Positions 4,102 to 24,675 of a DNA stretch of 38,409 nucleotides are shown one piece after another (positions within the stretch are counted from its first letter, which is position 1; every line of letters begins with the position of its first letter). The position numbers and the translations under genes were made by a program. The notes under the pieces are model-generated. The model had not been told where the DNA came from. It did no database searches and worked only from the letters and a program-made list of their open reading frames with translations. The DNA lies in assembly GCA_964359745.1 (NCBI GenBank), contig CAYHTR010000002.1, positions 1 to 38,409 on the forward strand, read 5' to 3'. Source of the stretch: an uncultured Candidatus Saccharibacteria bacterium. Lineage in GTDB: Bacteria; Patescibacteriota; Minisyncoccia; Phycocordibacterales; PALSA-1337.

Positions 4102-4943
4102 AAAATATGAAAAATAAAAAAGAAAATTTTGCTTACGAAACATATAAAAGTGTTGAATCATCAACAAATTTTTCCAGTGCAAAAGAATTACAGGAATACC
4201 GCTCATTACTTATGGATAGAGTATATAAAAAAGAAATACCATTTTTCAAAAAAAAATTTCCAAAAGGACTGGGCTCTACGCTAGAAGTCGGTTCTGGAAA
4301 CAGCCGGATTTTATACGCTCTTGAAAAAGAAAATCTTATAACAAAAGCTATCGGATTGGAAATATCTCCCTCTCGTTCAACATTTGCAAAAGAATGGAAA
4401 AAAGATTTAAAATCAAAAATTGTGGAAAATATTTGCGGAGATATTTTCTCTATGGATATTAAAGAGAAATTTGATACTGTTCTTTGCCTTACCAGTATAT
4501 TTCCCTTTTTTGATATGTTGGAGAAAGATGGTCTTAATAAGTTTATAAAAAAAGCTAACCAGTTACTTAAACCCAACGGCATTATTATATTAGAATCGGT
4601 CACCTTCAAACAAGAAATTGAATGTGCTCTTTCCTATGAAGGCAAAGTTAATCTTTGGGCAGAATTTAAAAAAACCGACCCATTTCAATTTAATCTCGTT
4701 GAATATGTATGGAATGAAAAAAAACGAGAGCTCGTGGCAACCACATATAACACTATGCGACACAAACTTTTTATTGACGGCCCAACAACAAAAAAATGGC
4801 ATATGGAGGAAAGTAAAACTATTGAAAAAAAGCTCTCAAAAAACAGCTTTCAAATACAATCTGTGTATGGTGGATATAATGGAAACACATATAAATCTAA
4901 TTCTTTGGAATACATTTTTATTGCAAAAAAGATAAAAAAGTAG
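4086..4943 (+). CDS. class I SAM-dependent methyltransferase
   Basis: 285 aa. Motif I-like LEVGSGNSRIL and a post-motif region NGIIILES. The start could be the ATG at 4086 (16-nt overlap with the AKR gene) or the ATG at 4107. Confidence 0.7.
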   Translation: MAKIIKNMKNKKENFAYETYKSVESSTNFSSAKELQEYRSLLMDRVYKKEIPFFKKKFPKGLGSTLEVGSGNSRILYALEKENLITKAIGLEISPSRSTFAKEWKKDLKSKIVENICGDIFSMDIKEKFDTVLCLTSIFPFFDMLEKDGLNKFIKKANQLLKPNGIIILESVTFKQEIECALSYEGKVNLWAEFKKTDPFQFNLVEYVWNEKKRELVATTYNTMRHKLFIDGPTTKKWHMEESKTIEKKLSKNSFQIQSVYGGYNGNTYKSNSLEYIFIAKKIKK

Positions 4944-4956
4944 TAGCTTATGCATT

Positions 4957-5901
4957 ATGAAATGCGTTATATGTAATAAAACCGTATCGATAATAATAGC
5001 CAAAGAATTGCGCAAGGGTGAAAAGAGAAATGTTTACCTGTGTAAAAACTGCGAACTGGGCATATTGGATTCAAAATTAAGTGCTGAAGAATTAAAAAAA
5101 TTTTATTCCGAAGAATATAGAAAAGTGGGCACGCCAAATATTTCACATAGTTCAAATCCGGAAGAACTTTTTGACACTTACTCAAGATTTCAAAATGATC
5201 GTCTTAAACTTCTCACGCCATATCTCAATAAAAAAACCAAATTACTAGAAATTGGATGTTCCGCCGGAATGTTTCTTTATAAAGTGAAAAATATGGTTGG
5301 AGAAATCGCCGGCATTGACTTTGATAAAACTTCAGCAGAATATGCGTCAAAAAAATGTAATTGTAAAGTTTACACAACCGATATTAAAGAAACGCCTTTT
5401 CCCAAAAAACACTTTGACATGATTCTGGCCTTTCAAACACTGGAACACGTTAAAAATCCTTATAGTTTTATAAATGATTTGAAAGAATATCTCGTTCCGG
5501 GCGGAATCATTGTTATGGAAGTGCCAAATCTTTATGACGCATTGGCTTACTTATATGAACTTCCTCAACATTATCGTTTTTATTATCATTCATCTCATCT
5601 TTGGTATTTCACTGAAAAAAGTTTGAATTTGCTTATGAACAAAACTGGATTCAAAGGAAAAGTTTATCATACTCAGGACTACAATATCTTAAATCATTTT
5701 CATTGGATTGACACCGACAAATCGGATCCAGATTGTAATAAGGGACTAAGTCAGCCTGTTCTACCTATGCGTAAAGAAAGATCTAAAGAAGTTAAAAAAG
5801 CTATGAGTGATTTTATACTTTCAATCGATAAGAATTACAAAAAATTGCTAGTTAAACATAAAATAACTTCCAATATAATTTATATCGGAAAAATGAAATA
5901 A
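4957..5901 (+). CDS. class I SAM-dependent methyltransferase with N-terminal CxxC...CxxC zinc ribbon
   Basis: 314 aa. MKCVICN...LCKNCELG zinc-ribbon pattern, LLEIGCSAGMF motif I, and FQTLEHVKNP..GGIIVMEVPN. Same architecture as the ORF at 27922-28776. Confidence 0.75.
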   Translation: MKCVICNKTVSIIIAKELRKGEKRNVYLCKNCELGILDSKLSAEELKKFYSEEYRKVGTPNISHSSNPEELFDTYSRFQNDRLKLLTPYLNKKTKLLEIGCSAGMFLYKVKNMVGEIAGIDFDKTSAEYASKKCNCKVYTTDIKETPFPKKHFDMILAFQTLEHVKNPYSFINDLKEYLVPGGIIVMEVPNLYDALAYLYELPQHYRFYYHSSHLWYFTEKSLNLLMNKTGFKGKVYHTQDYNILNHFHWIDTDKSDPDCNKGLSQPVLPMRKERSKEVKKAMSDFILSIDKNYKKLLVKHKITSNIIYIGKMK

Positions 5902-5902
5902 T

Positions 5903-6745
5903 ATGAATAAAATTGGCATTATGCAAGGCAGATTAACACCTTCGCAAGGACGGGGGATACAATTTTTCCCCTTTGGGCCTGGTGAATGGCAAGAAGAGTT
6001 TGTAAAAGCAAAAAAATTAGGACTTTATGATATTGACTTTGATTTTGACTTGGAATGCTACGAAGAAAATCCTCTTTGGACTAAAAAAGGTAGAAAAGAG
6101 ATAAAAGAAATTATAAAAAAAACCGGTGTAAAAGTAGAGCATATTACTGCCGATTTTTTTATGCGTCGTCCATTTTTTCGTGTTGATAAAAAAACACAAA
6201 AGAAAAATGAAGATATTTTTATAAAACTGATGAAATATGCAGATGAGATTGGTATTCATAACATAGAAATGCCTATTTTAGATAATTCTTCAATTAAAAC
6301 AAAAGATGAACAAAAAACATTTGTTGAATCCATGTTGCATTGTTTGGCAAAAGCACCTAAAAATATGACAATCAGTTTAGAAGGAGACCTCTCTCCAGAT
6401 AGTTTTTTAAAACTTCTTAAAGAAATAAATAATTCTGCAGTAAAAATTGTTTATGACATTGGAAATAGAGTTGGGCTTGGATATAGTCCAGAAAACGAAA
6501 TTCTGCTATTATACAAACACATAACCCATATACATATAAAAGATAAAAAATTTCAAGGAACAACCGTCCCGCTTGGAACTGGCTCTGCTAACTTTGATAA
6601 AATATTCTCCACTCTTGCTTCAATTAATTTCAAAGGGAATTTTATCTTACAGGTGGCACGAGGTGAAGATGGGAATGAAGAAAAAAAGATTTCAAAAGAT
6701 ATAAAGTTTGTAAATAATTATATAGAAAAATATTTAAAAAAATGA
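5903..6745 (+). CDS. sugar phosphate isomerase/epimerase (xylose isomerase-like TIM barrel, UlaE/SgbU-like)
   Basis: 280 aa. The N-terminus IGIMQGRL....IQFFP...W.EEF..AKKLG resembles hexulose-6-phosphate isomerase / L-ribulose-5-P 3-epimerase-like proteins. Starts 1 nt after the preceding stop. Confidence 0.65.
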
Positions 6746-7569: not shown

Positions 7570-9304
7570 AGTTATACATACGATAAAAATAAGAATTTTC
7601 GTCTTTGAGAAGCAGTTCAGGAGTGCCTTCTTCAATTATTTTTCCTCCGTCAAGAGCGATGATTTTATCAGTATTCATAATAGTTGATAAACGGTGAGCT
7701 ATAACAATCACAGTCAATTTACCTTTCAAATCCTCAATAACTTTTTGAATTTTCGTTTCGGATTCATTATCAAGAGCACTTGTCGCTTCATCTAGAACAA
7801 GAATTGTCGGCTTGCGCGCCAGTATTCTAGCAATAATAATTCTCTGTCTTTGTCCTTGTGAAAGAGTAACTCCTCGCTCGCCTACTACTGTTTCGTATCC
7901 TTCTGGCAATTCTGAAATAAAATCATCAATATATGCCTGTTTTGACGCTTTCACAATATCTTCTTGAGTAATACTTCCATCATAAAAAGAAATATTATTA
8001 GCAATAGTATCATTTATAATAAAAATATCTTGAGGCACATAACCAATATTTTTTCGCCATTGAATCAAGTCAATATTATTAGAATTTTTTCCATCAATAG
8101 TAATTAATCCACTAGTTGGAATAAAAAGACGCAAAAGCAAATCAACAATAGTGGTTTTTCCCGAACCAGACGGACCAATTAAGCCAACCATTTCACCTCT
8201 CTTAATTGTAAAATTAACATCTTCCAAAACCGAAGAGGATTCGTTATATCCAAATTTTATATTTTCAAACTTAAGCTCTTTTTTAAAAACAAAGTCTTCA
8301 CCAGCATTAACATATTCATGCATCTTTTTAGAATCATCAGTAAAAGCCTGAACCGCTTTAAAATAAGGAAACGAATCGTTTATCACATGTAAATATCGTT
8401 GAAGATTTTGAACATAAATAAAAATTTGTTGAATAAGATAAACCACCACAGCCAAAGCAGCAATATTAAAACCTGGCGTTTTATAAGTAAAACCAAAAAT
8501 TGTCAGCACAAACATAAGCCCTAGCGGTTGCATCAAAGAAGGTGGTATTAATTTGAAAAAAGCCGCTTTAATTCTGTATATTTTCATCGTTGCAAAATAA
8601 ACAAAACCTTTTTTAATTACTTCTTCATCAACTGCCATCGCTTTTACCGTCTTCATACCAAGAAGATTTTCATTTATATGATGCGCAACATCTCTATTAA
8701 CCCCCTCAGATTGTCTTGCAATTCTACGGGTCCGCAATAAAAGTGGTCGAGACGACGCAATAAAAATAAATCCCACAGCAATTGTAAGAATAGTAATCGG
8801 CAAAGATATATTAATTGCCACCAAACTATACATAATCAAACTAGCCACAGAAACAATAAGCCCTCCAAAATTATTTAAAAGCTGTTCACAATAATCAACA
8901 TTTGTAAGAATAGCTGTATTTAAATGTCCAAGTTGTTGTTTCAAAAGATATGGCCAGTTTGCTTCAACTGTATGTTTAAATACTTTTCTGCGAGTTTTTT
9001 CGGTATAATCCGCAGTAATTTTAATTGAAAGATAATCGCCAATAATAACAGCAATGGTTTTAAATATAAATAATCCGATTACCAAAAAAAGAAGATATTT
9101 CAATCTAAACTCTATATGAAAATAACTAAAAGCTTTAGCAATAGTTCTTGAAATTGAATCGTCTCCCAAATTTCCATTTCCAGTCACAAGAGCAAAAATA
9201 GGAATAAAAGCGTTAATACCAACTCCTTCTAAAAGTGCGCTTAAAAAGCCGGTTGTTGCCAACGCTATGATTTTTAACTTATATTCCCTAAAGACAAGCA
9301 ACAT
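7565..9304 (-). CDS. ABC transporter, fused permease/ATPase (MsbA/PglK-like lipid-linked glycan exporter type)
   Basis: 579 aa. N-terminal half with six predicted TM helices. Walker A GPSGSGKTT, signature LSQGQRQR, Walker B ILVLDEATSALD. Confidence 0.9.
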   Translation of the reverse strand: MLLVFREYKLKIIALATTGFLSALLEGVGINAFIPIFALVTGNGNLGDDSISRTIAKAFSYFHIEFRLKYLLFLVIGLFIFKTIAVIIGDYLSIKITADYTEKTRRKVFKHTVEANWPYLLKQQLGHLNTAILTNVDYCEQLLNNFGGLIVSVASLIMYSLVAINISLPITILTIAVGFIFIASSRPLLLRTRRIARQSEGVNRDVAHHINENLLGMKTVKAMAVDEEVIKKGFVYFATMKIYRIKAAFFKLIPPSLMQPLGLMFVLTIFGFTYKTPGFNIAALAVVVYLIQQIFIYVQNLQRYLHVINDSFPYFKAVQAFTDDSKKMHEYVNAGEDFVFKKELKFENIKFGYNESSSVLEDVNFTIKRGEMVGLIGPSGSGKTTIVDLLLRLFIPTSGLITIDGKNSNNIDLIQWRKNIGYVPQDIFIINDTIANNISFYDGSITQEDIVKASKQAYIDDFISELPEGYETVVGERGVTLSQGQRQRIIIARILARKPTILVLDEATSALDNESETKIQKVIEDLKGKLTVIVIAHRLSTIMNTDKIIALDGGKIIEEGTPELLLKDENSYFYRMYNL

Positions 9305-9333: not shown

Positions 9334-10008
9334 ATGACGCAAATAAAACGATTAATTGAGCTTATAGTCAATTTTTACGCTAAGTTAAATAATTTTAGTT
9401 TTCCAAATAAATTTACTTGGAAATGGAAGCTAGAAATGCTTTTTCATAATTACGAAAAAGAAACTACAGAATTATTTAAAAAAATCATAAAACCAGGAAT
9501 GACAGTTATTGATATTGGCGCACACATTGGATATTTTACTCGCCTATTTTCCAAACTTGTTGGTGAAAAAGGCAAAGTGTTTGCTTTTGAAGCTGACCCT
9601 ATTAATTTTAGTTTTTTAAAAAGAAATACTTTTCATTTGACTAATACCATTATCATAAATAAAGCTGTGTCAGAACAAAATGGAGAAATTAGTTTTTATC
9701 ATATTCCAGACAGCACTGGTTGTCATAGCGTCATAAAACCAAATAGACCAGCGGAAAAAATAACCATTCCAGCTGTAACTGTTGATTCAATAATAACAGA
9801 ATATAATCTAATCAAAATAGATGTAATAAAAATGGATATAGAAGGGGGAGAATTGCTAGCACTCGCTGGGATGCAAAATCTTCTTAATAAAAGCTCTGGA
9901 ATAACAATAATAACAGAATATAATTCTCTAGCATTAGATAAACTTGAAGCATGTTGTTTTAAGCTTTCCAAAATACCGAATAGTATAAATGTATTAGCAA
10001 AAAAATGA
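9334..10008 (+). CDS. FkbM family methyltransferase
   Basis: 224 aa. VIDIGAHIGYFT, FAFEADP and IKMDIEGGE are characteristic of the FkbM/Methyltransf_21 family. Confidence 0.7.
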   Translation: MTQIKRLIELIVNFYAKLNNFSFPNKFTWKWKLEMLFHNYEKETTELFKKIIKPGMTVIDIGAHIGYFTRLFSKLVGEKGKVFAFEADPINFSFLKRNTFHLTNTIIINKAVSEQNGEISFYHIPDSTGCHSVIKPNRPAEKITIPAVTVDSIITEYNLIKIDVIKMDIEGGELLALAGMQNLLNKSSGITIITEYNSLALDKLEACCFKLSKIPNSINVLAKK

Positions 10009-10009
10009 A

Positions 10010-11227
10010 ATGACCAACAATAAACGCATCTTAATCGTGGCTCCATACGGTTTTAATGACAGAATGACAAATTATATAGAATTCGTCAGTGGTCGACTTT
10101 TAGCTAAAAATGGCTGGTCTGTAATAGCAATTACTAGAGCCGAAAATAATAAAAACTCCATAAATAATACTTGTGGAATAAATGTCTATCGTTATAAAAA
10201 TATCTTATTTGGAATAATAGATTTATTAAATATTCTTCTCCTTTTTAGGCCCAAAATAATTCATATTCATAATTTAAGAAATAATCGACTTGGTATTATT
10301 ACAGCTATTTTTGCTCGCATTTTTTTTATTCATTATGTATTTACCGAATATGGCCTTTTGCACGACCATTATCTTACTGATGACAGAGAAGATCCTTTAA
10401 ATAATACAATTCATACCGAACGAGTTATTTGCAACATAACTCAACTTATTAAAAAAATAATAAAGAAACCAAAAATTTTTAAGTATTATATATCAAGCTA
10501 TATATTTCACTGGCCAATTACTCATGCAAATTCAATAGTTTTCGTATCAAAACATAATATTCTAATCGCAAAAGAATTAAAATTGCCACCCAGTATTTAT
10601 TTGCCTTATATAATTGATAATTACAGATGGACAGCAATTGATTCATCTGGAAAAGAAATTCTAGAAAAAATAAAAAACTTAACTGGCGTTAATGTATTGT
10701 TTATCGGCCAAATGAAATTAAGAAAAGGCTGGGATATACTTTTGAAAGCGATACCTTCTATACCAGTTGATGTTATAGAAAAATTTATTATAAAAACTTC
10801 AACAACGGGCAATGAAAGCGATGAATATAGTAATGTAGTGGATTCTTTGGGGATTAGGGAAAGAATAGTTTATTTAGATAAATTTTTCAGCAATGATATA
10901 CTAAAAAAAGTATACGAAGTTAGTACATTTGTGGTAGTACCATCTCGTTATGAAGGTTTTGGATTAGTGCCTCTTGAAGCATTTGAAATGAATAAACCAG
11001 TTATCGCAAGTCGAGTTAATGCACTTACTGATTTTCTCACTGATAATGAAAATTGCCTTTTAGTTCCATCAAAAGATCCCCAAAAACTAGCTGAAACAAT
11101 TATAAAAATAGCAAAAGATATGGAATTGCAAAAAAAGCTTATAAAAGGAGGAAATGATACACTTAATAGATTAAAATCAAAAGAATATGAACAAAAATGG
11201 TTGGAATATTATAATCAAAAAGTTTAA
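10010..11227 (+). CDS. glycosyltransferase family 4 (GT-B fold)
   Basis: 405 aa. The C-terminal domain has PSRYEGFGLVPLEAFEMNKPVIAS (the E-x7-E motif of GT4). Confidence 0.85.
   Translation: MTNNKRILIVAPYGFNDRMTNYIEFVSGRLLAKNGWSVIAITRAENNKNSINNTCGINVYRYKNILFGIIDLLNILLLFRPKIIHIHNLRNNRLGIITAIFARIFFIHYVFTEYGLLHDHYLTDDREDPLNNTIHTERVICNITQLIKKIIKKPKIFKYYISSYIFHWPITHANSIVFVSKHNILIAKELKLPPSIYLPYIIDNYRWTAIDSSGKEILEKIKNLTGVNVLFIGQMKLRKGWDILLKAIPSIPVDVIEKFIIKTSTTGNESDEYSNVVDSLGIRERIVYLDKFFSNDILKKVYEVSTFVVVPSRYEGFGLVPLEAFEMNKPVIASRVNALTDFLTDNENCLLVPSKDPQKLAETIIKIAKDMELQKKLIKGGNDTLNRLKSKEYEQKWLEYYNQKV
11170..11215 (+). repeat. 46-nt direct repeat, copy 1 (3' end of the GT4 gene)
   Basis: ATTAAAATCAAAAGAATATGAACAAAAATGGTTGGAATATTATAAT, identical to the copy at about 11986-12031. 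Contains the ATG at 11187. Confidence 0.9.
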
Positions 11228-11234
11228 AACCCTA

Positions 11235-11990
11235 ATGTCTTTTGATCTTGTATGGGCATTTATATACTATAAAAAGAAAATAAAACTATACAGCCATTAT
11301 TTCATTTCAAAAATAGTTCAAAGAAAATTTTGGGTGGCTGATATTAGGGGATTAAAAATAAAACTTGGTTTTAATAATTATTACCAACACCATATTGCAA
11401 GAAATATCGCTCATAATGGAAACGAAACAGAAATGTTAAACATTTGGCGAGAAGCTTCAAGAAATAAACATATAGTGGTTGATTTGGGTGGATATAATGG
11501 AATTTTTGGTATTATTTCCGCCTTAGCTAATTCAGAATCAAAAGTATATATTTTTGAACCAGATTCGATAAATTGCGAACAAATAAGAAAAAATATATCT
11601 CTAAACAAATTATCAAATGTTGAACTAGTTGAATCTGCTGTAGCTGATAAAAACGGCACTGTATATTTTGATAGACATATCGGTGGTACTGGAGGAAAAA
11701 TCTCAAAAGAAGGATTTGAAGTTCCTTGTATTACTTTAGATACATTTTTTAAAAACAAAAATAATCCTACATTAATGAAGGTAGACATTGAAGGTGCAGA
11801 ACAAAGAATGTTTGAAGGTGCAGAACAAATTATTAAATCAAAACCTGAAATATTGCTTGAGGCACACTGGGCATTTTTAGCACGCTATGGAGACGATATT
11901 AAGAGTCTACTTGGTATAATTAAAGAATTCGGTTACAAAACACTCTGGTTAGATGAAACGAATGTGGCAAATCATTATTGGTTAAATTAA
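11235..11990 (+). CDS. FkbM family methyltransferase (second paralog)
   Basis: ORF 11187-11990. The conserved body starts around the ATG at 11235 (MSFDL...). Motifs: VVDLGGYNGIFG, IFEPD, MKVDIEGAE. The upstream in-frame ATG at 11187 lies in the duplicated segment and would add MNKNGWNIIIKKFKTL. Confidence 0.7.
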   Translation: MSFDLVWAFIYYKKKIKLYSHYFISKIVQRKFWVADIRGLKIKLGFNNYYQHHIARNIAHNGNETEMLNIWREASRNKHIVVDLGGYNGIFGIISALANSESKVYIFEPDSINCEQIRKNISLNKLSNVELVESAVADKNGTVYFDRHIGGTGGKISKEGFEVPCITLDTFFKNKNNPTLMKVDIEGAEQRMFEGAEQIIKSKPEILLEAHWAFLARYGDDIKSLLGIIKEFGYKTLWLDETNVANHYWLN

Positions 11991-12031
11991 AATCAAAAGA
12001 ATATGAACAAAAATGGTTGGAATATTATAAT
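11986..12031 (+). repeat. 46-nt direct repeat, copy 2 (spans the FkbM stop and the start of the polytopic gene)
   Basis: Identical to the copy at 11170-11215. Contains the ATG at 12003. Confidence 0.9.
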
Positions 12032-13748
12032 TCTCTCACTAGCGATACTTGTCGGTAGCATAAGTGTCGCGCCACATCTTTTAGCGGTACAAAGTGTTGG
12101 TACCGAATACAAAGAAATCCCCTTTCTTTATTTAAATAATGAATTCGGCTATGTAGCGCGAATTCAAGAAATTTCTGATGGGCATGGTCTTATCGGGTCA
12201 GCCAATTTTTTTGAATATAAAAATATTATTCCGATTGTGCCTCCTTTTGGCGAATATGCTTATTATATATTACATATATTAACTGGATTATCAGTACTAA
12301 ATACTGTTATATTGGCAAAATTTCTTTTTCCAGCAATACTTTTTATTCTAGTTTATTTATTTGTTTCAAAATTATTAAAAACCACGCTGGATTATGTAAA
12401 AAAAATAAGTGCCATCACGGCTGGAATATTTATTACGCTAGGGTATGACTTGATAGATTTTAGAACTGTATTATCGCGTTTCATGACTGACGACTATAAT
12501 ACATATTTATCTCTCTGGACCAGACCAGTAAACCCTATAATCGGCGGACTTTTTTTATTTTCCTTTCTTATTTTAGTATTAAATATAATTGAAAATAAAA
12601 ATCGCAAAATAAGTGCTATATTTGCCGGTTTAATACTTGCTTTAACTGCCAGTTATTTTTTTTCTTTTGCTTTGGCTTGGATTATTCTTTTTTTACTCGT
12701 ATTAAGATATTTATGGAAACGTGATTATTTTGTAGTTAAAGCGTTTTCAATATCGGCTCTTATCGCCATAATAATAGATTCTTTTTATTGGCTAAACTCA
12801 TTAAAAAGTGTAGTTGGAGATGCAATAGATGTGGCCAATCGCAGTGGGCTTCTTCATTTTCACACCCCAATTTTGAACAAAGTTTTAATCATGGCAACTT
12901 TAATTTTCATCGCACTAGTGTGGAAAAATATCAGAAATAATAAAAATGAAACAATGTGGTTTTGCGGAATTATGCTTGCATCTGGATTTATTGCCTTTAA
13001 TCAACAAATTATTACTGGCGTGACTATCTGGCCATATCATTTTGTTCAATATACAATCCCTTTTTCGATAATCGCCATTATAGTAATGTGTGGAAATATT
13101 TTTGGTCAAAAGTATCAAAAAGTTTATAAAATATCTTGTATCAGCACTACACTATTCATAATAATATTCGCTTTATGGAATATATCTTCTTATAAAAACT
13201 CATTGGAAGATTTCCGAAATAGACAACCAATCGATCAACTATTTTCTTGGCTTAATAATAATGCCGAAAAAGATTGTGTGGTGCTTGTAGACGAAAAAAA
13301 TGAAGTCATAAATGAAATGATACCCGCTACGACACACTGCAATGTTTATCGTTCGCTTGATGTTAATAGTGGAGTGCCAGAAGAAAGAACTATGTGGAGC
13401 TATCTAATAAAGCTCAAACTGGGACAAAGTTTAACCTTGTCTGAAATTGATTCATATCTTAACTTACATAAAACCGAGGTTACTTCATATTTTTTTACTG
13501 ATTGGGATAATGCTTTTGGTAAAAAAACCAACCCTGAGCTTGAAAATATTATCAAAAAAATATCCGAGCAATATAAATTATTTATAAAAAAAGATTTCGC
13601 CACAGGATTATCACAATATAAATTGGATTATATAATCACAACAAATCCTAATTCGCAAATAATAAAAGAATTAACTCCACATCTTGAATTTATTTTGCAA
13701 TCTCATAATAATAAAGAGACTTTCTCACTATATAGATTTAAAAAATAA
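12003..13748 (+). CDS. large polytopic membrane protein with C-terminal soluble domain (uncharacterised, GT-C-like topology)
   Basis: 581 aa. About 11 hydrophobic segments in the first ~400 residues. The first loop motif EFGYVARIQEISDGHGLIG is shared with the ORF at 26189-27925. Confidence 0.6.
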   Translation: MNKNGWNIIILSLAILVGSISVAPHLLAVQSVGTEYKEIPFLYLNNEFGYVARIQEISDGHGLIGSANFFEYKNIIPIVPPFGEYAYYILHILTGLSVLNTVILAKFLFPAILFILVYLFVSKLLKTTLDYVKKISAITAGIFITLGYDLIDFRTVLSRFMTDDYNTYLSLWTRPVNPIIGGLFLFSFLILVLNIIENKNRKISAIFAGLILALTASYFFSFALAWIILFLLVLRYLWKRDYFVVKAFSISALIAIIIDSFYWLNSLKSVVGDAIDVANRSGLLHFHTPILNKVLIMATLIFIALVWKNIRNNKNETMWFCGIMLASGFIAFNQQIITGVTIWPYHFVQYTIPFSIIAIIVMCGNIFGQKYQKVYKISCISTTLFIIIFALWNISSYKNSLEDFRNRQPIDQLFSWLNNNAEKDCVVLVDEKNEVINEMIPATTHCNVYRSLDVNSGVPEERTMWSYLIKLKLGQSLTLSEIDSYLNLHKTEVTSYFFTDWDNAFGKKTNPELENIIKKISEQYKLFIKKDFATGLSQYKLDYIITTNPNSQIIKELTPHLEFILQSHNNKETFSLYRFKK

Positions 13749-13753
13749 AAAGA

Positions 13754-13780
13754 AAAACCAAACACTCGGTGTTTGGTTTT
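13754..13780. terminator. hairpin terminator between convergent genes
   Basis: 11-bp stem AAAACCAAACA / TGTTTGGTTTT with a short loop (CTCGG). Flanked by an A-run on the left, and the right arm ends in a T-run, so it could work in both directions. Confidence 0.65.
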
Positions 13781-13799
13781 GAGATTTGTGTGTTCTAAT

Positions 13800-14366
13800 T
13801 CAGTTTTTTCCCAATGCTAGAAAAAGAATACGACAGAGCAATTCCCGTAAGAGCATAAAGCACATATGGATATTTCCTCCACGACATACCCAATGCACCA
13901 GTTTAGAATGTTCATATCCTTTCTGTGGAACCCAAGCTGGCATCGCATCAAGACCTAAGCGTTGATAGGTCCAAACAGCCCGCCCCATATGGTATGGATA
14001 TGCAACCACAATGACTCGCTTCCATCCCTTCTTTCTGCAAAAAAGTGCTTGCTCTTTTGCAACAGAATAAGTGTTTACTGTAGCACTTGACCGACCATCA
14101 GAAGAACTTTTGACTATCAAATCACAATGCAATTCAGGCAATGCGATTGATATTTCTTCCTGTACTAAAAGTGGTAGAGATAATCTTTTCTGAAGTGTCT
14201 CTGCCACTCGCGCCAAAATTTCATTTCCAGGCCCAGCACCACCATCAGACAGACGACTGAAAGCTTGAGTTGCAATGCAATCAGCAGTATTGAGTTCATT
14301 CTCTGTGGCTGGTAAGACGTGCCACGAGAAAAAACAGTTAAATAACCGTCTTAGAAAAAGGCACAT
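13800..14366 (-). CDS. DUF218 (YdcF/SanA/ElyC-like) domain protein, tentative
   Basis: 188 aa. The segment SSATVNTYSVAKEQALFCRKKGWKRVIVVAYPYHMGRAVWTYQRLGL resembles the DUF218 core (nT.eN...ilVT..yHm.Ra). A strong SD (AAGGAGG) lies 5 nt upstream of the ATG. Sample line is about 48% GC. Confidence 0.5.
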   Translation of the reverse strand: MCLFLRRLFNCFFSWHVLPATENELNTADCIATQAFSRLSDGGAGPGNEILARVAETLQKRLSLPLLVQEEISIALPELHCDLIVKSSSDGRSSATVNTYSVAKEQALFCRKKGWKRVIVVAYPYHMGRAVWTYQRLGLDAMPAWVPQKGYEHSKLVHWVCRGGNIHMCFMLLRELLCRILFLALGKN

Positions 14367-14484
14367 TTGGCCTCCTTTTTTTTAATTGTTTACAAACAAC
14401 TCCACAACTAACCCGAATTACAATATACTATTATATTTAATCTTAGTCAATAGTTGTGTACATTACGGTCTTATTCTTTCAATA

Positions 14485-15555
14485 CTATTTTTTTGTTTCT
14501 CCACTTACCGAATATGTTTTTGCAGAAAAAATATACTGTTCAATAAATATTTTTTTAAATGGAATAATAGAATTTAATTCATAGAATGCCAAAATCGCTT
14601 CTCTATAGCTATTTTCATCGACACTTCTGTATGAAAGAGGTGCGTATTCATATGCAAGTAATATAGCATTAGCTATCAAGCGAGATGTTCTTTTGTTTCC
14701 ATCTTCAAATGGTTGAATATAACTAATACCTAATAGAGCAATCATAGCTTTTACATAAGGTGAAGTAATCATATTAACAACATCACACAAGGATATAGTA
14801 GCTTCTTTTATTTGATGAATATTATCAAGTGGTCTATATGACGAACCTGTAACTCCTACAGCTTTTTCACGCAAACCATAATTAATGTTGAAATCCTTAA
14901 TCAAAATTTTATGAACTTTTTCAAGATTAGCAAGATTTAATTCTTTAAATAAATTGAAATTTTCTCGTATAAATTTAAAGGCCTCCTTGTGATTCAATAT
15001 CATTTTTGCTTCATTTATATCATGTCCCACGGCTTCAATACCCCTACTTATAAGTTTTTCTGTATCAAGTAAAGTATATGTATTCCCTTCAATTTTTGAG
15101 GACTTCCATGATAATTCAATTATAAATCTTTCTAATTCTTTTTCTTCAAGAGTTTTTGAAATTAAATGTATATTTTTCTTATATACCTCTGTAACTTCAT
15201 CGAGTTCTTGAATTTCAGAATCTGAAAATAGCTCATTGGAAATAGAATTAAATAATTCAAAATTAAAACTTTTTAGACCATATCGCTTATCGGGATCGAT
15301 AGTGGAATACTCCTTTGCGTTAATATCTACAAACAAGCGTCCATATGAACTTACTGAATATTTTACTGAACGACCAGCGCCTAAAATTTTTAATAGACCT
15401 AAGTTTTTCAGCTCTCCTAATTCACGTTTGACAGTAATAAGAGAAACATCATTACCAAGTTTTGATAATTCATCATGAATTTCGGAAGAAGCGAGATTTT
15501 CATTTTTTAAGAAAATATTTAATATAATCTGTTGATTTTGAGCAATTTTTATCAT
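14485..15555 (-). CDS. Fic/Fido domain protein with N-terminal winged-helix DNA-binding domain and a non-canonical active-site motif
   Basis: ORF 14485-15588 opens with TTG; the first ATG is at 15555 (MIKIAQNQ). HTH-like LASSEIHDELSKLGNDVSLITVKRELGELKNLGLL. Alpha-inh-like motif SSKIEGN. The Fic motif reads IQPFEDGNKRTSR (codon CAA checked in the DNA) where HPFxDGNGRxxR is expected. Confidence 0.8.
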   Translation of the reverse strand: MIKIAQNQQIILNIFLKNENLASSEIHDELSKLGNDVSLITVKRELGELKNLGLLKILGAGRSVKYSVSSYGRLFVDINAKEYSTIDPDKRYGLKSFNFELFNSISNELFSDSEIQELDEVTEVYKKNIHLISKTLEEKELERFIIELSWKSSKIEGNTYTLLDTEKLISRGIEAVGHDINEAKMILNHKEAFKFIRENFNLFKELNLANLEKVHKILIKDFNINYGLREKAVGVTGSSYRPLDNIHQIKEATISLCDVVNMITSPYVKAMIALLGISYIQPFEDGNKRTSRLIANAILLAYEYAPLSYRSVDENSYREAILAFYELNSIIPFKKIFIEQYIFSAKTYSVSGETKK

Positions 15556-15600
15556 AATCGTATCATTTAATATACCTAATCGTATCAAAATGATACGATT
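15556..15600 (-). promoter_or_regulatory. three copies of a 10-nt half-site (TGATACGATT / AATCGTATCA): one perfect palindrome plus one direct copy abutting the Fic start codon; candidate operator
   Basis: On the plus strand, AATCGTATCA sits at 15556-15565 and 15578-15587, and its reverse complement TGATACGATT at 15591-15600 (3-nt spacer). The two same-orientation copies are 22 nt apart. Confidence 0.5.
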
Positions 15601-15611
15601 ATTGCAATCAA

Positions 15612-22129: not shown

Positions 22130-23048
22130 TTTTTATAATATCCTTAACCATATACGGGGAACGGTCAGGATTATCATAATAAATACGCAACATCATTTCA
22201 GCTAAAAGTCCTATCATAAAAAGCAAAACACCGAGAATAGCAAAAAGTGTTCCGACAGTTGGAAGTGGTGTTTCGGTAATATTTAAAATATGCATTAATC
22301 TAAGCCAAACAGAAAAACCAAAAGCTATTAAAGCTAAAATCATACAAACTAAACCCCAACCACCAAAAAAACGAAGTGGTTTTGAGAAATATTTAACAAA
22401 AAATGCTACACTTAAAAAATCAAAAACTCCTTTAATCATTTTTGAAATGCGAATTTTTGACACACCCACTTGACGATAATGATATGTGACTGGAACTTCT
22501 GTAATTTTTGCTCCTCTTTCTTTTGCTACCGCAACAAGAAAAACTTGCGATTCGCCTCGCAAACGAAAATCTTTTATAAACTTACTTCTGTACGCTTTGA
22601 GTCCACAGCCAAGGTCGTGAACTGAAATACCTAAAATCAATCTCGCACACCAGTTGGCAAAGGCAGAAAATAACATACGACTAAAAGCATCTTTGCGGTT
22701 TTTTCTTAAACCAATAACAACATCAAATCCTTCTTCCATTTTTTTAAGAAGGGTTATAATTTCAGCCGGGTCATTTTGCAAATCAGCATCAAGCAATACA
22801 ATTATATCGCCCCGCGAAATATATATTCCCATATCGATTGTCGCTGTCTGTCCATAATTGCGTTGAAGAGAAACCAGTTTGAGAGGTTTAAGTTTTGAAG
22901 CAATTTCTTTTGTCTTATCTCTTGAACAATCATTGACAAATATAATCTCATATTGCTCTTTTTGAGACCTCATAACATCAAAAATGCGCCTATAAAGCTC
23001 AACAACAGTCTTTTCTTCGTTAAAAATAGGCACAATAACGGATATCAT
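22122..23048 (-). CDS. glycosyltransferase family 2, polyprenyl-phosphate sugar synthase type (GtrB/ArnC/DPM1-like) with C-terminal TM helices
   Basis: 308 aa. ISVIVPIFNEE, FVNDCSRDKT, LLDADLQNDP, and two C-terminal hydrophobic helices. 8-nt overlap with the downstream fusion gene. Confidence 0.85.
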   Translation of the reverse strand: MISVIVPIFNEEKTVVELYRRIFDVMRSQKEQYEIIFVNDCSRDKTKEIASKLKPLKLVSLQRNYGQTATIDMGIYISRGDIIVLLDADLQNDPAEIITLLKKMEEGFDVVIGLRKNRKDAFSRMLFSAFANWCARLILGISVHDLGCGLKAYRSKFIKDFRLRGESQVFLVAVAKERGAKITEVPVTYHYRQVGVSKIRISKMIKGVFDFLSVAFFVKYFSKPLRFFGGWGLVCMILALIAFGFSVWLRLMHILNITETPLPTVGTLFAILGVLLFMIGLLAEMMLRIYYDNPDRSPYMVKDIIKNE

Positions 23049-23057
23049 AATCGGCTC

Positions 23058-23063
23058 ATTATA
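23058..23063 (-). promoter_or_regulatory. TATAAT -10 box (minus strand) about 9 nt upstream of the GT2 start codon
   Basis: The minus strand reads ...CCCCGTTTTTTTTATATAATGAGCCGATTATG. The box lies directly downstream of the terminator hairpin. Confidence 0.35.
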
Positions 23064-23092
23064 TAAAAAAAACGGGGTTTTATCAACCCCGT
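23064..23092 (-). terminator. rho-independent terminator of the radical SAM gene
   Basis: The minus strand reads ACGGGGTT GATAA AACCCCGT followed by TTTTTTTT: an 8-bp perfect stem starting about 10 nt after the stop codon. Confidence 0.75.
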
Positions 23093-23101
23093 CTGTGTTT
23101 C

Positions 23102-24649
23102 TTAACTTTTTACAGCCAATTCCGCCGCACCGGACTGCCAGCGGTGTCCTGCACTCGCTTCAATCCGCGAACGAATGTACTCTTTTGAATTTGCGTAACC
23201 CCACCCCCAATCCCGAAGTTCGACGATCTTTTCTGGAGCCACAGCGGTGTTTTTCATCACCGCATGCTTCCAATTTAAAAGATCTGAGTCAAAATCACGA
23301 CTGAGATGACCATTGGCAATCGCATATTCAAACAATTTTGAGCCCGGAAATGGAATAGGAATGAAAAATGTGCAATACGGAGCGCCGGCTTCGACGATCT
23401 CTTTGCCCATTTCAATACTATTTCTGATTTCATCTTCCGTTTCGTCCGGAAACCCAATCATCATGTTGATCGGCGAAACAATACCGAGTTCCGCCGCGAT
23501 TTTCACCAAGTCAAAAATATCGAGTCGATCGTGATGCAATTTACCCGTCGCATATTTGTTTAGAATACGCTGATTGGCAGATTCCACCGGAAACACAATT
23601 TGGTCAAAACCAGAATCCCGCAAAAGTGCAAGGTAGTCCTTGTCAATTACGAGACGATTTCCTTCGCGTTTCTGTAGATGGACTAAGTTGACCCCGTTTA
23701 TTGCTCCGATGGTGAATCCCATAGCACGCATTCTAGTGAAAATCTCCACTATGCGTGCTTTGTTTGCGAGAAGCGAATCATCTTCAAAGAAGAGCTTTGT
23801 AACGCCCAACTTTTTCAAACGACTGACTTCTTCCATAACCCTCTCAATTGACTTGAGACGCAAAGAGCCAATACCCCCACTATCTCCTTCTCTTTCTTTT
23901 TCAGTAGAGATATGACAATACCAACACTTGAACGGACATCCTCGTGACGTCGCAATTGGAGCATATCTGCCCGGATTAATGGACAGAACGGCATGGCTTG
24001 AACTGATTCCGTCATAGTGTTTGAACGGCAATTTTTCCCAAGCAGGAAAAGGTAAACCGTCCAAGTCTTGATAGACATCTTCAGGAACAAGCGGTTTACG
24101 GATTATTTTTCCGTCTCGCATTGTTATGACCCCGGAAACTTCCGCAAGGTCTTCTCCCTTAAGCCAAGCATGTATCATATTGACCATTATCCGTTCTCCT
24201 TCTGTCGAACAGATAGCATCAATGTTGCCGTGTTTCAAAAGGCGTTCTGGCATATTTCGAGCATTCACTCCGCCCGAAAGCACCAAAATATCCCGAGAAA
24301 TGGCTTTTACTGTTGCCGCCACTTCAAGGACAATTCTGATTTGCGGGGTAAAGTTTGAGCTTATTCCCACAATGTTATAATTACCATTCGCAACAAAATC
24401 ACGAATACTTTCAATCGTCATACCAATTCGGACCAAGCCATTGGCTTGCATCTCGCTTCGATAAAACGTTTCCTTCAGATTTGAATCTTCAGGACCAACT
24501 GAGGCATCGAGGATATCTGTTTCATATCCCGCCTTTTCTAGAGCTCCAGCCAGATAAATCGGTCCCAAAGAACCGTCTGGCCGAGGCGTCTCGATTGACA
24601 TAAGCTGATTTGGTGGGTATATCAGCAATACTTTTGGTTGTTTCTTCAT
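23102..24649 (-). CDS. B12-binding domain-containing radical SAM enzyme (class B radical SAM family)
   Basis: 515 aa. The N-terminal region has the layout of a cobalamin-binding Rossmann-like domain (VLLIYPP...YLAGALEKAGYETDILD). CxxxCxxC cluster motif SRGCPFKCWYCH. Sample lines are 40-57% GC. Confidence 0.88.
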   Translation of the reverse strand: MKKQPKVLLIYPPNQLMSIETPRPDGSLGPIYLAGALEKAGYETDILDASVGPEDSNLKETFYRSEMQANGLVRIGMTIESIRDFVANGNYNIVGISSNFTPQIRIVLEVAATVKAISRDILVLSGGVNARNMPERLLKHGNIDAICSTEGERIMVNMIHAWLKGEDLAEVSGVITMRDGKIIRKPLVPEDVYQDLDGLPFPAWEKLPFKHYDGISSSHAVLSINPGRYAPIATSRGCPFKCWYCHISTEKEREGDSGGIGSLRLKSIERVMEEVSRLKKLGVTKLFFEDDSLLANKARIVEIFTRMRAMGFTIGAINGVNLVHLQKREGNRLVIDKDYLALLRDSGFDQIVFPVESANQRILNKYATGKLHHDRLDIFDLVKIAAELGIVSPINMMIGFPDETEDEIRNSIEMGKEIVEAGAPYCTFFIPIPFPGSKLFEYAIANGHLSRDFDSDLLNWKHAVMKNTAVAPEKIVELRDWGWGYANSKEYIRSRIEASAGHRWQSGAAELAVKS

Positions 24650-24675
24650 TTAAAGACCTTTCTAAAGCCAGAATA

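Follow-up and report, generated by a model that had tools for sequence, protein, structure and literature searches.

A gene for an FkbM-family methyltransferase, FkbM2, has probably been inserted through short-homology (illegitimate) recombination into a 56-nucleotide (nt) overlap between two glycosyltransferase genes, one encoding a GT4 enzyme and the other a polytopic membrane protein of predicted GT-C fold, and repeats now flank an optional gene at this site. The locus lies in a 38,409-nt stretch of DNA, hereafter the window, from the genome of an uncultured member of the Patescibacteria (candidate phyla radiation, CPR; contig CAYHTR010000002.1, positions 1 to 38,409). The features on which the argument turns are the following.

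10010-11227, + strand: GT4 glycosyltransferase gene (PF00534, 90.5 bits), the protein ending ...LNRLKSKEYEQKWLEYYNQKV before the stop
11167-11215, + strand (exact 46 nt at 11170-11215): repeat copy 1 (R1), dual-coding for the GT4 C-terminus and for the FkbM2 start region with its first 10 codons
11187-11990, + strand: FkbM2, the inserted FkbM-family methyltransferase gene, 267 amino acids (PF05050, TIGR01444), starting MNKNGWNIIIKKFKTL...
11216-11982, + strand: inserted non-duplicated DNA, FkbM2 coding body only with no flanking non-coding DNA, GC content 30%, the same as the flanks
11983-11990, + strand: putative right-junction microhomology, TAAATTAA, the last codons and stop of FkbM2 itself, matching TAGATTAA of GT4
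11983-12031, + strand: repeat copy 2 (R2), containing the FkbM2 stop, a 12-nt GT4 coding relic AATCAAAAGAAT that is now a leader, and GT-C from its start through codon 10
12003-13748, + strand: polytopic gene, predicted GT-C-fold membrane glycosyltransferase, 581 amino acids, starting MNKNGWNIIILSLAIL...

Self-comparison of the window yielded exactly two copies of the 46-mer ATTAAAATCAAAAGAATATGAACAAAAATGGTTGGAATATTATAAT, both on the + strand, at 11170-11215 and 11986-12031, just as a preliminary description of this DNA had claimed; the 46-mer appeared in 0 of 100 dinucleotide-preserving shuffles. Allowing one mismatch (TAG vs TAA) lengthens the repeat to 49 nt (11167-11215 and 11983-12031), and this pair is the sole long repeat of the 38-kb window. 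As its spacing of 816 nt equals 272 codons, the open reading frames (ORFs) of FkbM2 and of the polytopic protein share one frame. Copy 1 encodes the C-terminus of GT4, ...LNRLKSKEYEQKWLEYYN, which is followed by QKV and the stop, and copy 2 comprises the FkbM2 stop (TAA, 11988-11990) and, beyond a spacer of 12 nt, the beginning of the polytopic ORF. The ORF map agrees with the earlier placement of one copy at the GT4 3' end and the other across the FkbM stop and polytopic start, and the translations reproduce the MNKNGWNIII N-terminus that had been reported for both ORF 11187 and ORF 12003. The gene identities proposed there for GT4 and FkbM were confirmed by Pfam and NCBIfam matches; FkbM2 scored 56.8 bits against PF05050 (cut-off 22.7) and 84.4 bits against TIGR01444 (cut-off 37.7), and its family has 27 invariant columns over 19 homologues.

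Both junctions are found beyond the window. L003, a contig deposited on its own from the same population, which equals the window save for 7 mismatches in the first 81 nt, carries the two of them, and they recur in L174, a contig from a lineage some 12-14% divergent from the window. Between these lineages the 46-mer is identical at 45/46 positions, the sole variable base lying 2 nt before the ATG; such a near-frozen sequence fits constraint from dual coding and from the initiation region. Both copies in the window carry the same derived A at that base, which hints at gene conversion between them. Folded as RNA, copy 1 showed no structure beyond shuffled controls (z = 0.12), and Rfam gave no credible match. 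Just 3' of copy 2, at 12041-12070, there is an RNA hairpin (z = -2.4 vs shuffles) whose loop contains the TAG that ends GT4 in alleles lacking FkbM2; it is kept in L001, one such allele, and less so in L002, a contig related to L174. A role of this hairpin in translational coupling is possible.

The preliminary description had explained the repeat by duplication of an ancestral GT4/polytopic overlap upon insertion, and had asked for relatives with an empty site. Two were found, and both support that explanation. In L001 (JANLHG010000019.1) FkbM2 is absent, and GT4 (4830-6056, 408 amino acids, ending ...KSKEYEQKWLEYYNSLISDTCR before the stop) overlaps the gene for the polytopic protein, whose ATG is at 6001, by 56 nt; the GT-C protein of L001 is 77% identical to that of the window. 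When L001 was aligned to the window by BLASTN, the segments matching the left and the right flank overlapped by exactly the 49 repeat bases, a signature of target duplication. The second empty site, L173, belongs to a closer lineage and came from the cluster, at 90% identity, that holds the window GT4; its GT4 of 410 amino acids, ending ...EYYNSLVGDTGR, likewise has a 56-nt overlap with GT-C. The GT4 tails of the two empty sites, with the consensus end ...EYYNSL(I/V)(S/G)DT(C/G)R, are encoded in the 5' region of GT-C, in the other reading frame.

Three lines of sequence evidence show the 56-nt overlap to be ancestral and the repeat pair to be derived. First, the C-terminal helix of GT4 (…LKSxExxxxWLxFY…), encoded by copy 1, is native to its family: all of 22 GT4 homologues share W397 and Y401, and copy 1 stops just past both, the new tail QKV deriving from the insert DNA. 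GT4 tails seen or proposed comprise ...EYYNQKV, ...EYYNSLISDTCR, and ...EYEQK. Second, the N-terminus of the GT-C protein is native to its own family, as a comparison with MSKSRWSVVALL... in a Taylorbacteria outgroup illustrates. The DNA 5' of the GT-C ATG in the outgroup loci L004 and L005 is unrelated, so that AATCAAAAGAAT in copy 2 is a non-coding relic of GT4. Third, FkbM2 homologues in other contexts do not have the MNKNGW extension, which in copy 1 is GT-C-derived.

The ends of the insert could be placed by comparison with FkbM2 homologues. Members of the family end with HYW[LV]x(0-8) before the stop, and the nearest homologue outside the locus, L085, ends with CAC TAT TGG CTA AAC TAA (HYWLN and stop). 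By this token the window sequence TGGTTAAATTAA (11979-11990) is the 3' end of FkbM2 itself, with its native stop; the first 5-8 nt of copy 2 would represent junction microhomology, and the true target duplication is at most 41 nt. The 46-nt duplication of the preliminary description holds as a repeat, but the duplicate proper is shorter, and two steps may lie behind the identity over 46 nt, for the left junction in L002 is different and shorter. At the other end, the native start of the FkbM2 subfamily is M-[LI]-K-x-x-x-KK-x-K-TL; in L091 it reads MLKIFFKKFKTL, with the ATG right after the stop of the upstream gene, and it is also kept in L002. FkbM2 in the window has no such native ATG, its conserved KKFKTL (KKxxTL in the family) lies 5' of the next in-frame ATG (11235), and an in-frame TAA at 11172 rules out a start before 11187. 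From these three facts together we infer that FkbM2 is translated from the captured GT-C start codon at 11187, as the preliminary description had surmised when it suggested that the methyltransferase uses a captured initiation region.

The closest out-of-locus homologues of FkbM2 are 61-70% identical to it, and when the alignment of the FkbM2 family was used to look for related loci, nothing but generic FkbM genes of unrelated phyla came up. One homologue of about 70% identity, at ~1783-2574 of L091, has an in-frame TGA at a family-invariant Trp (…MDHA*AFKYY…); a pseudogene, an error in sequencing, and an organism that recodes TGA are possible explanations.

These data suggest the following course of events. 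The 3' end of GT4 overlapped the 5' end of GT-C by 56 nt, and an FkbM-family ORF entered this overlap by recombination at short similarities; the outcome is plain from the sequence, and the recombination that would have produced it calls for no element-encoded machinery. The right junction would have formed at TA(A/G)ATTAA, common to the FkbM2 stop region and the GT4 tail, where the identity amounts to ATTAA or to 7/8 nt as judged from L085 rather than from the true donor. The left junction would lie where the 5' ends of FkbM2 and of GT-C resemble each other (ATGAACAAAAATG...ATTAT), the identity being ATGAACAAAAATG and/or TTAT.AT as judged from L002 and L091, again rather than from the true donor. 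Relative to the GT-C ATG, the right target site presumably lay ~20 nt upstream and the left one 13-29 nt downstream; because the two were so placed, the target between them would have been copied on both sides of the insert. In this way the genes would have become un-overlapped, with copy 1 preserving the conserved C-terminal helix of GT4 and copy 2 the translation-initiation region of GT-C, and selection would then have kept the product in which the two genes no longer overlap. Devoid of its own ATG, FkbM2 would be translated from the duplicated GT-C start, gaining MNKNGWNIII. At present it is a repeat-flanked optional gene that could be lost by recombination between the repeats, and either allele might spread by ordinary homologous recombination.

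Alleles with and without the gene occur within one lineage. L173, L174, and L002 are contigs of sibling assemblies, here lineage B, whose GT-C 5' regions are mutually 99.7-100% identical and ~86% identical to that of the window. L173 is empty and L174 is filled with exactly the junctions of the window, while L002 carries GT2 (minus strand), FkbM2, copy 2, and GT-C without GT4. Window and L174 diverge by 12-14% over GT4, most of FkbM2, and GT-C, which implies that the insertion is old; the synonymous divergence (dS) between the window and lineage B is ~0.55. L173 and L174 do not differ in the 322 nt left of the junction, and to its right they agree at 99.7-100% of at least 560 nt; the gene was thus either lost precisely in a recent crossover between the repeats, it would seem, or removed by recent allelic replacement. 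With empty and filled alleles on identical flanks in a single lineage, the repeats probably permit scarless loss of FkbM2. A 193-nt tract across the left junction (11126-11318) has one mismatch between window and L174, including 0/103 in the FkbM2 5' region, and this near-identity indicates a recent exchange between the two lineages over that junction; further mosaic patches of window and L174 are at 11474-11609 and 10583-10658. The notion that the window itself is a recent recombinant of an L001-like left and an L002-like right part was rejected, as its flanks are equally far from L001 (78-82% and 80%). Equally rejected was the presence elsewhere in the window of the L002 upstream genes (GT2 and a Methyltransf_13-type gene), for which tblastn gave no match.

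Whether the filled allele arose in one step or two is a matter on which L002 bears. There FkbM2 starts with ATGAACAAAAATG, AT, and ATGATTAAAGTTATTATTAAAAAA in succession (MNKND-MIKVIIKK), so that just the first 13 nt of the GT-C start stand upstream, and the junction sequence of this type is ATGAACAAAAATGATATGATT. The identity of the 13-mer ATGAACAAAAATG is unexpected by chance (p=0.002, shuffles), and in the spacer upstream of it 17/21 positions agree with the tail of GT4 (shuffle p=0.04), as in a decayed GT4 tail. In L002 the 5' block of FkbM2, which reaches approximately to position 11318 of the window, departs by 21-26% from the version in the window and L174. We favour, at about an even chance, a history of two steps, a primary junction at +13 and then its extension to +29, as the simplest reading. 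L002 would on this account retain the older left junction, in which GT4 had been clipped to ...EYEQK with the invariant W397 and Y401 gone, and its lineage would have lost GT4 later; in the window and L174, copy 2 or an empty allele would have been the partner in a further recombination that took copy 1 to +29 and restored WLEYYN.

It is also possible, though rather doubtful, that FkbM2 was inserted and 41-46 nt were duplicated at once in one illegitimate event (a template switch in replication or staggered-break repair), the 5' end of L002 being due to later decay or replacement. Such a history takes the fewest events, it accounts for the exactly equal junctions of the window and L174, and the patch in L002 differs at ~29% of sites, which is inside neutral divergence at this locus (proportion of synonymous differences, pS, 0.38-0.42). 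The patch would nevertheless have had to recreate the native M-I-K by chance, and at the correct spacing from KK. One step or two, the process consists of short-homology recombinations filtered by selection, with no cassette system.

Several points weigh against an insertion by short-homology recombination as we describe it. An insert so precisely bounded by an ORF is not expected from random illegitimate recombination and requires selection or later trimming. No donor locus of FkbM2 was found among the homologues recovered, and the junction microhomologies are consequently derived from those homologues. The choice between one and two steps depends on the single contig L002, itself a mosaic. 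L173 and L174, from which the empty/filled polymorphism is read, are SPAdes contigs with a coverage of just 2.5-2.9x. Finally, the constraint on the 46-mer is deduced solely from its conservation, 45/46 across lineages vs pS of 0.4-0.6 elsewhere.

The opposite polarity, in which the filled arrangement is ancestral and the overlapping junctions of L001 and L173 are secondary deletions rather than remnants of an uninterrupted site, is improbable. Deletion between 46-nt direct repeats is easy, and L173, with flanks identical to those of L174, probably is such a deletion. Yet the repeats consist of a GT4 tail and a GT-C start, each half native to its own family, and both the GT4 relic 5' of GT-C and the GT-C-derived extension of FkbM2 require a prior overlap.

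Improbable, too, is the idea that the 46-mer serves as an att-like site in a cassette system that depends on a recombinase, with this enzyme encoded elsewhere and shuttling single glycan genes at the GT4/GT-C junction. Presence and absence alleles with identical flanks, repeats that are precise and conserved in two lineages, and the genome-to-genome variation of sequence just 5' of GT-C orthologues would suit it. The insert at 11216-11982, however, is FkbM2 ORF throughout (PF05050, TIGR01444) and encodes no transposase; a search for inverted repeats found none at its termini, nor are there any non-coding cassette ends. Annotation of the window ORFs with Pfam and NCBIfam revealed no tyrosine or serine recombinase in or beside the insert, and neither an IntI integrase nor attI nearby, the annotated ORFs being of glycan-biosynthesis, ABC-transporter, Fic, and similar types, although not every small ORF was scanned. 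An attC is a structured element of ~57-141 nt; no such site follows FkbM2, whose stop lies within the repeat, 12 nt from the next ATG, with no significant fold and no Rfam match. Target-site duplications of insertion sequences (IS) and transposons are typically 2-14 bp, and the repeat of 41-49 nt falls outside that fixed range. Its sequence is, moreover, wholly explained by the coding sequences of GT4 and GT-C. The insert is thus an ORF-only segment and not a mobile cassette, lacking the hallmarks of IS, integrons, and integrase-bearing elements alike. The earlier remark that inverted repeats and a recombinase were not to be seen, and that another insertion mechanism was at work, is in keeping with these searches; its "cassette" of about 770 nt survives as a single-gene insert of that size, without the recombination sites or recombinase that would make it mobile.

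The suggestion that further cassettes might occupy the same junction failed, as FkbM2 alone was ever found between the repeats. Among ~80 loci with GT-C orthologues, neighbouring genes vary widely and the region just 5' of GT-C differs from genome to genome, but the duplicated start region occurs at just one, the present locus; the duplication mechanism is not recurrent in the available data. The FkbM2-GT-C adjacency was rejected as a widely conserved arrangement on the same high variability of neighbours. In Komeilibacteria (L087, 5674-6852) an FkbM2 homologue lies directly 3' of an IS110-family transposase gene in a glycan cluster shared with a GT-C orthologue, another sign of frequent rearrangement in such clusters. 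Exact-pattern scans for the repeat core in collections of metagenomes and genomes otherwise returned loci already known; the two further 24-nt matches (AACAAAAATGGTTGGAATATTAT plus one base), L171 928-951 and L172 2216-2239 on a Dependentiae and a Micrarchaeota contig, have no flanking homology and are probably chance in AT-rich DNA. As for an assembly artefact (a chimeric join or mis-traversal of a repeat node), metagenomic contigs with relatives at low coverage invite the thought, but its probability is close to nil given that both junctions recur in L003 and in the ~12-14% divergent L174, the right one in L002 as well, and that every ORF is intact and in frame.

Known systems resemble parts of this arrangement. 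Homology-facilitated illegitimate recombination, which de Vries and Wackernagel are said to have described in 2002, reportedly operates in transformable bacteria. The analogue closest in mechanism is this process together with microhomology-mediated templated insertion (MMBIR, in which microhomology mediates replication induced by a break, or template switching; PMC8421209): junctions form at short identities, the insert is copied from elsewhere, and the target may be duplicated. Here, by contrast, such a mechanism is only deduced from its product, and the insert boundaries coincide almost exactly with one ORF. The closest analogue in logic is engineered refactoring, the decompression of overlapping genes by duplicating the overlap, as in Syn57 E. 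coli (doi 10.1101/2025.05.02.651837) and phiX174 (doi 10.1101/2020.06.10.143693). There, too, shared bases are duplicated such that each gene keeps a complete end or initiation region, whereas the present case is natural, a gene has been inserted between the copies, and the upstream copy is still dual-coding. A limited literature search found only engineered and no natural examples of un-overlapping by duplication.

Direct target repeats flank the insert as they do with IS and transposons, but a repeat of 41-49 nt around a bare ORF, with neither transposase nor terminal inverted repeats, sets it apart. Integrative elements that duplicate att sites in the 3' ends of tRNA or protein genes similarly use a repeat of tens of nucleotides to rebuild the interrupted gene end and leave the target functional; unlike them, the 770-nt single-gene insert carries no integrase, and its repeat also provides the insert with a start codon. 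With O-antigen, capsule, and glycosylation loci, whose polymorphism in gene content is upheld by homologous recombination, the locus shares a variable glycan-modifying gene, mosaic sequences, and presence/absence alleles in one population, and it differs in that a functional overlap junction is restored scarlessly when the gene is lost.

The empty and filled sites show how a compact genome can gain a gene inside an overlapping pair with its neighbours undamaged, a natural counterpart to the refactoring of overlapping genes in synthetic biology, and they show that the gene content of glycan loci in Patescibacteria varies within populations. In essence this is an ordinary gene-gain/loss polymorphism in a variable glycan locus, and natural un-overlapping together with start-codon capture is what is notable about it; no new class of mobile element is revealed, and there is no direct practical consequence. 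A more ambitious proposal, to which we give little credence, is that selection maintains the 46-nt segment as a recombinase-independent adapter, at once the C-terminal end of GT4, a portable initiation region, and a recombination substrate. If it were true, single glycan-modifying genes could be plugged in and removed scarlessly between GT4 and GT-C, and rather than a frozen accident the repeat would be a reversible, population-level switch of surface-glycan methylation in the streamlined Patescibacteria.

The surroundings of the site are of one kind. By Pfam and NCBIfam annotation the window is one long glycan-biosynthesis island with NeuB-like and PseF-like genes, an aminotransferase, several methyltransferases, an ATP-binding cassette (ABC) exporter, GT2, GT4, a PMT_2 protein, and a radical SAM (S-adenosylmethionine) enzyme, and the operon order is FkbM1-GT4-FkbM2-GT-C. 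Further features in and around this operon are these.

9256-9285, + strand: promoter-like site in the intergenic region between the divergent ABC (-) and FkbM1 (+) genes, a consensus match only
9334-10008, + strand: FkbM1, FkbM-family methyltransferase gene (PF05050 and TIGR01444 matches)
13754-13780, - strand: terminator-like hairpin directly after the GT-C stop, within the DNA of a second insertion
13800-14366, - strand: DUF218-like gene, GC content 42.5% vs a ~30% background, part of the second insertion
14485-15588, - strand: Fic gene of the second insertion in the window

The site at 9256-9285 is likely the promoter of the operon. FkbM1 is the first gene of an FkbM1-GT4 module that is conserved in other Patescibacteria and fused in some. 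Single proteins of ~690 amino acids that join an FkbM1-type methyltransferase to GT4 (P0246 and P0256) were seen there, and such fusions support a functional FkbM1-GT4 pair.

The polytopic protein had no Pfam match, and a profile search of the sequences in the PDB with its family was also empty. An AlphaFold model based on 32 homologues reached a pLDDT (predicted local distance difference test) of 88 and a pTM (predicted template modelling score) of 0.90. When compared with the PDB by Foldseek, its top 16 matches were all GT-C proteins, PglB, AftA, DPY19, AglB, ArnT, AftD, and ALG9, with E values from 1.7e-7 to 6e-4 and TM-scores of 0.37-0.53; a GT-C glycosyltransferase fold is predicted on this ground. 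GT-C enzymes have catalytic acidic residues in the first extracytoplasmic loop and use a lipid-linked sugar donor; in the polytopic protein, E47, E56, and E71 are invariant or nearly so.

A second insertion, at 13749-15611, was observed at the 3' end of GT-C. In L001 and L004 this end overlaps a convergent transaldolase-like gene by 20 nt, and both the window and L002 have an insert placed exactly after TTTA at this end, namely the DUF218-like gene, to which the window adds the Fic gene. The transaldolase-like ORF stayed whole and GT-C lost its last five codons (…SAKR to …KK); unlike the 5' junction, this insertion involved no duplication. Elsewhere in the window, two islands richer in GC than the ~30% background, 1-1000 (48%) and 23000-24650 (44%), hold genes for a NeuB-like synthase and for a radical SAM protein that binds B12, and may have been horizontally acquired.

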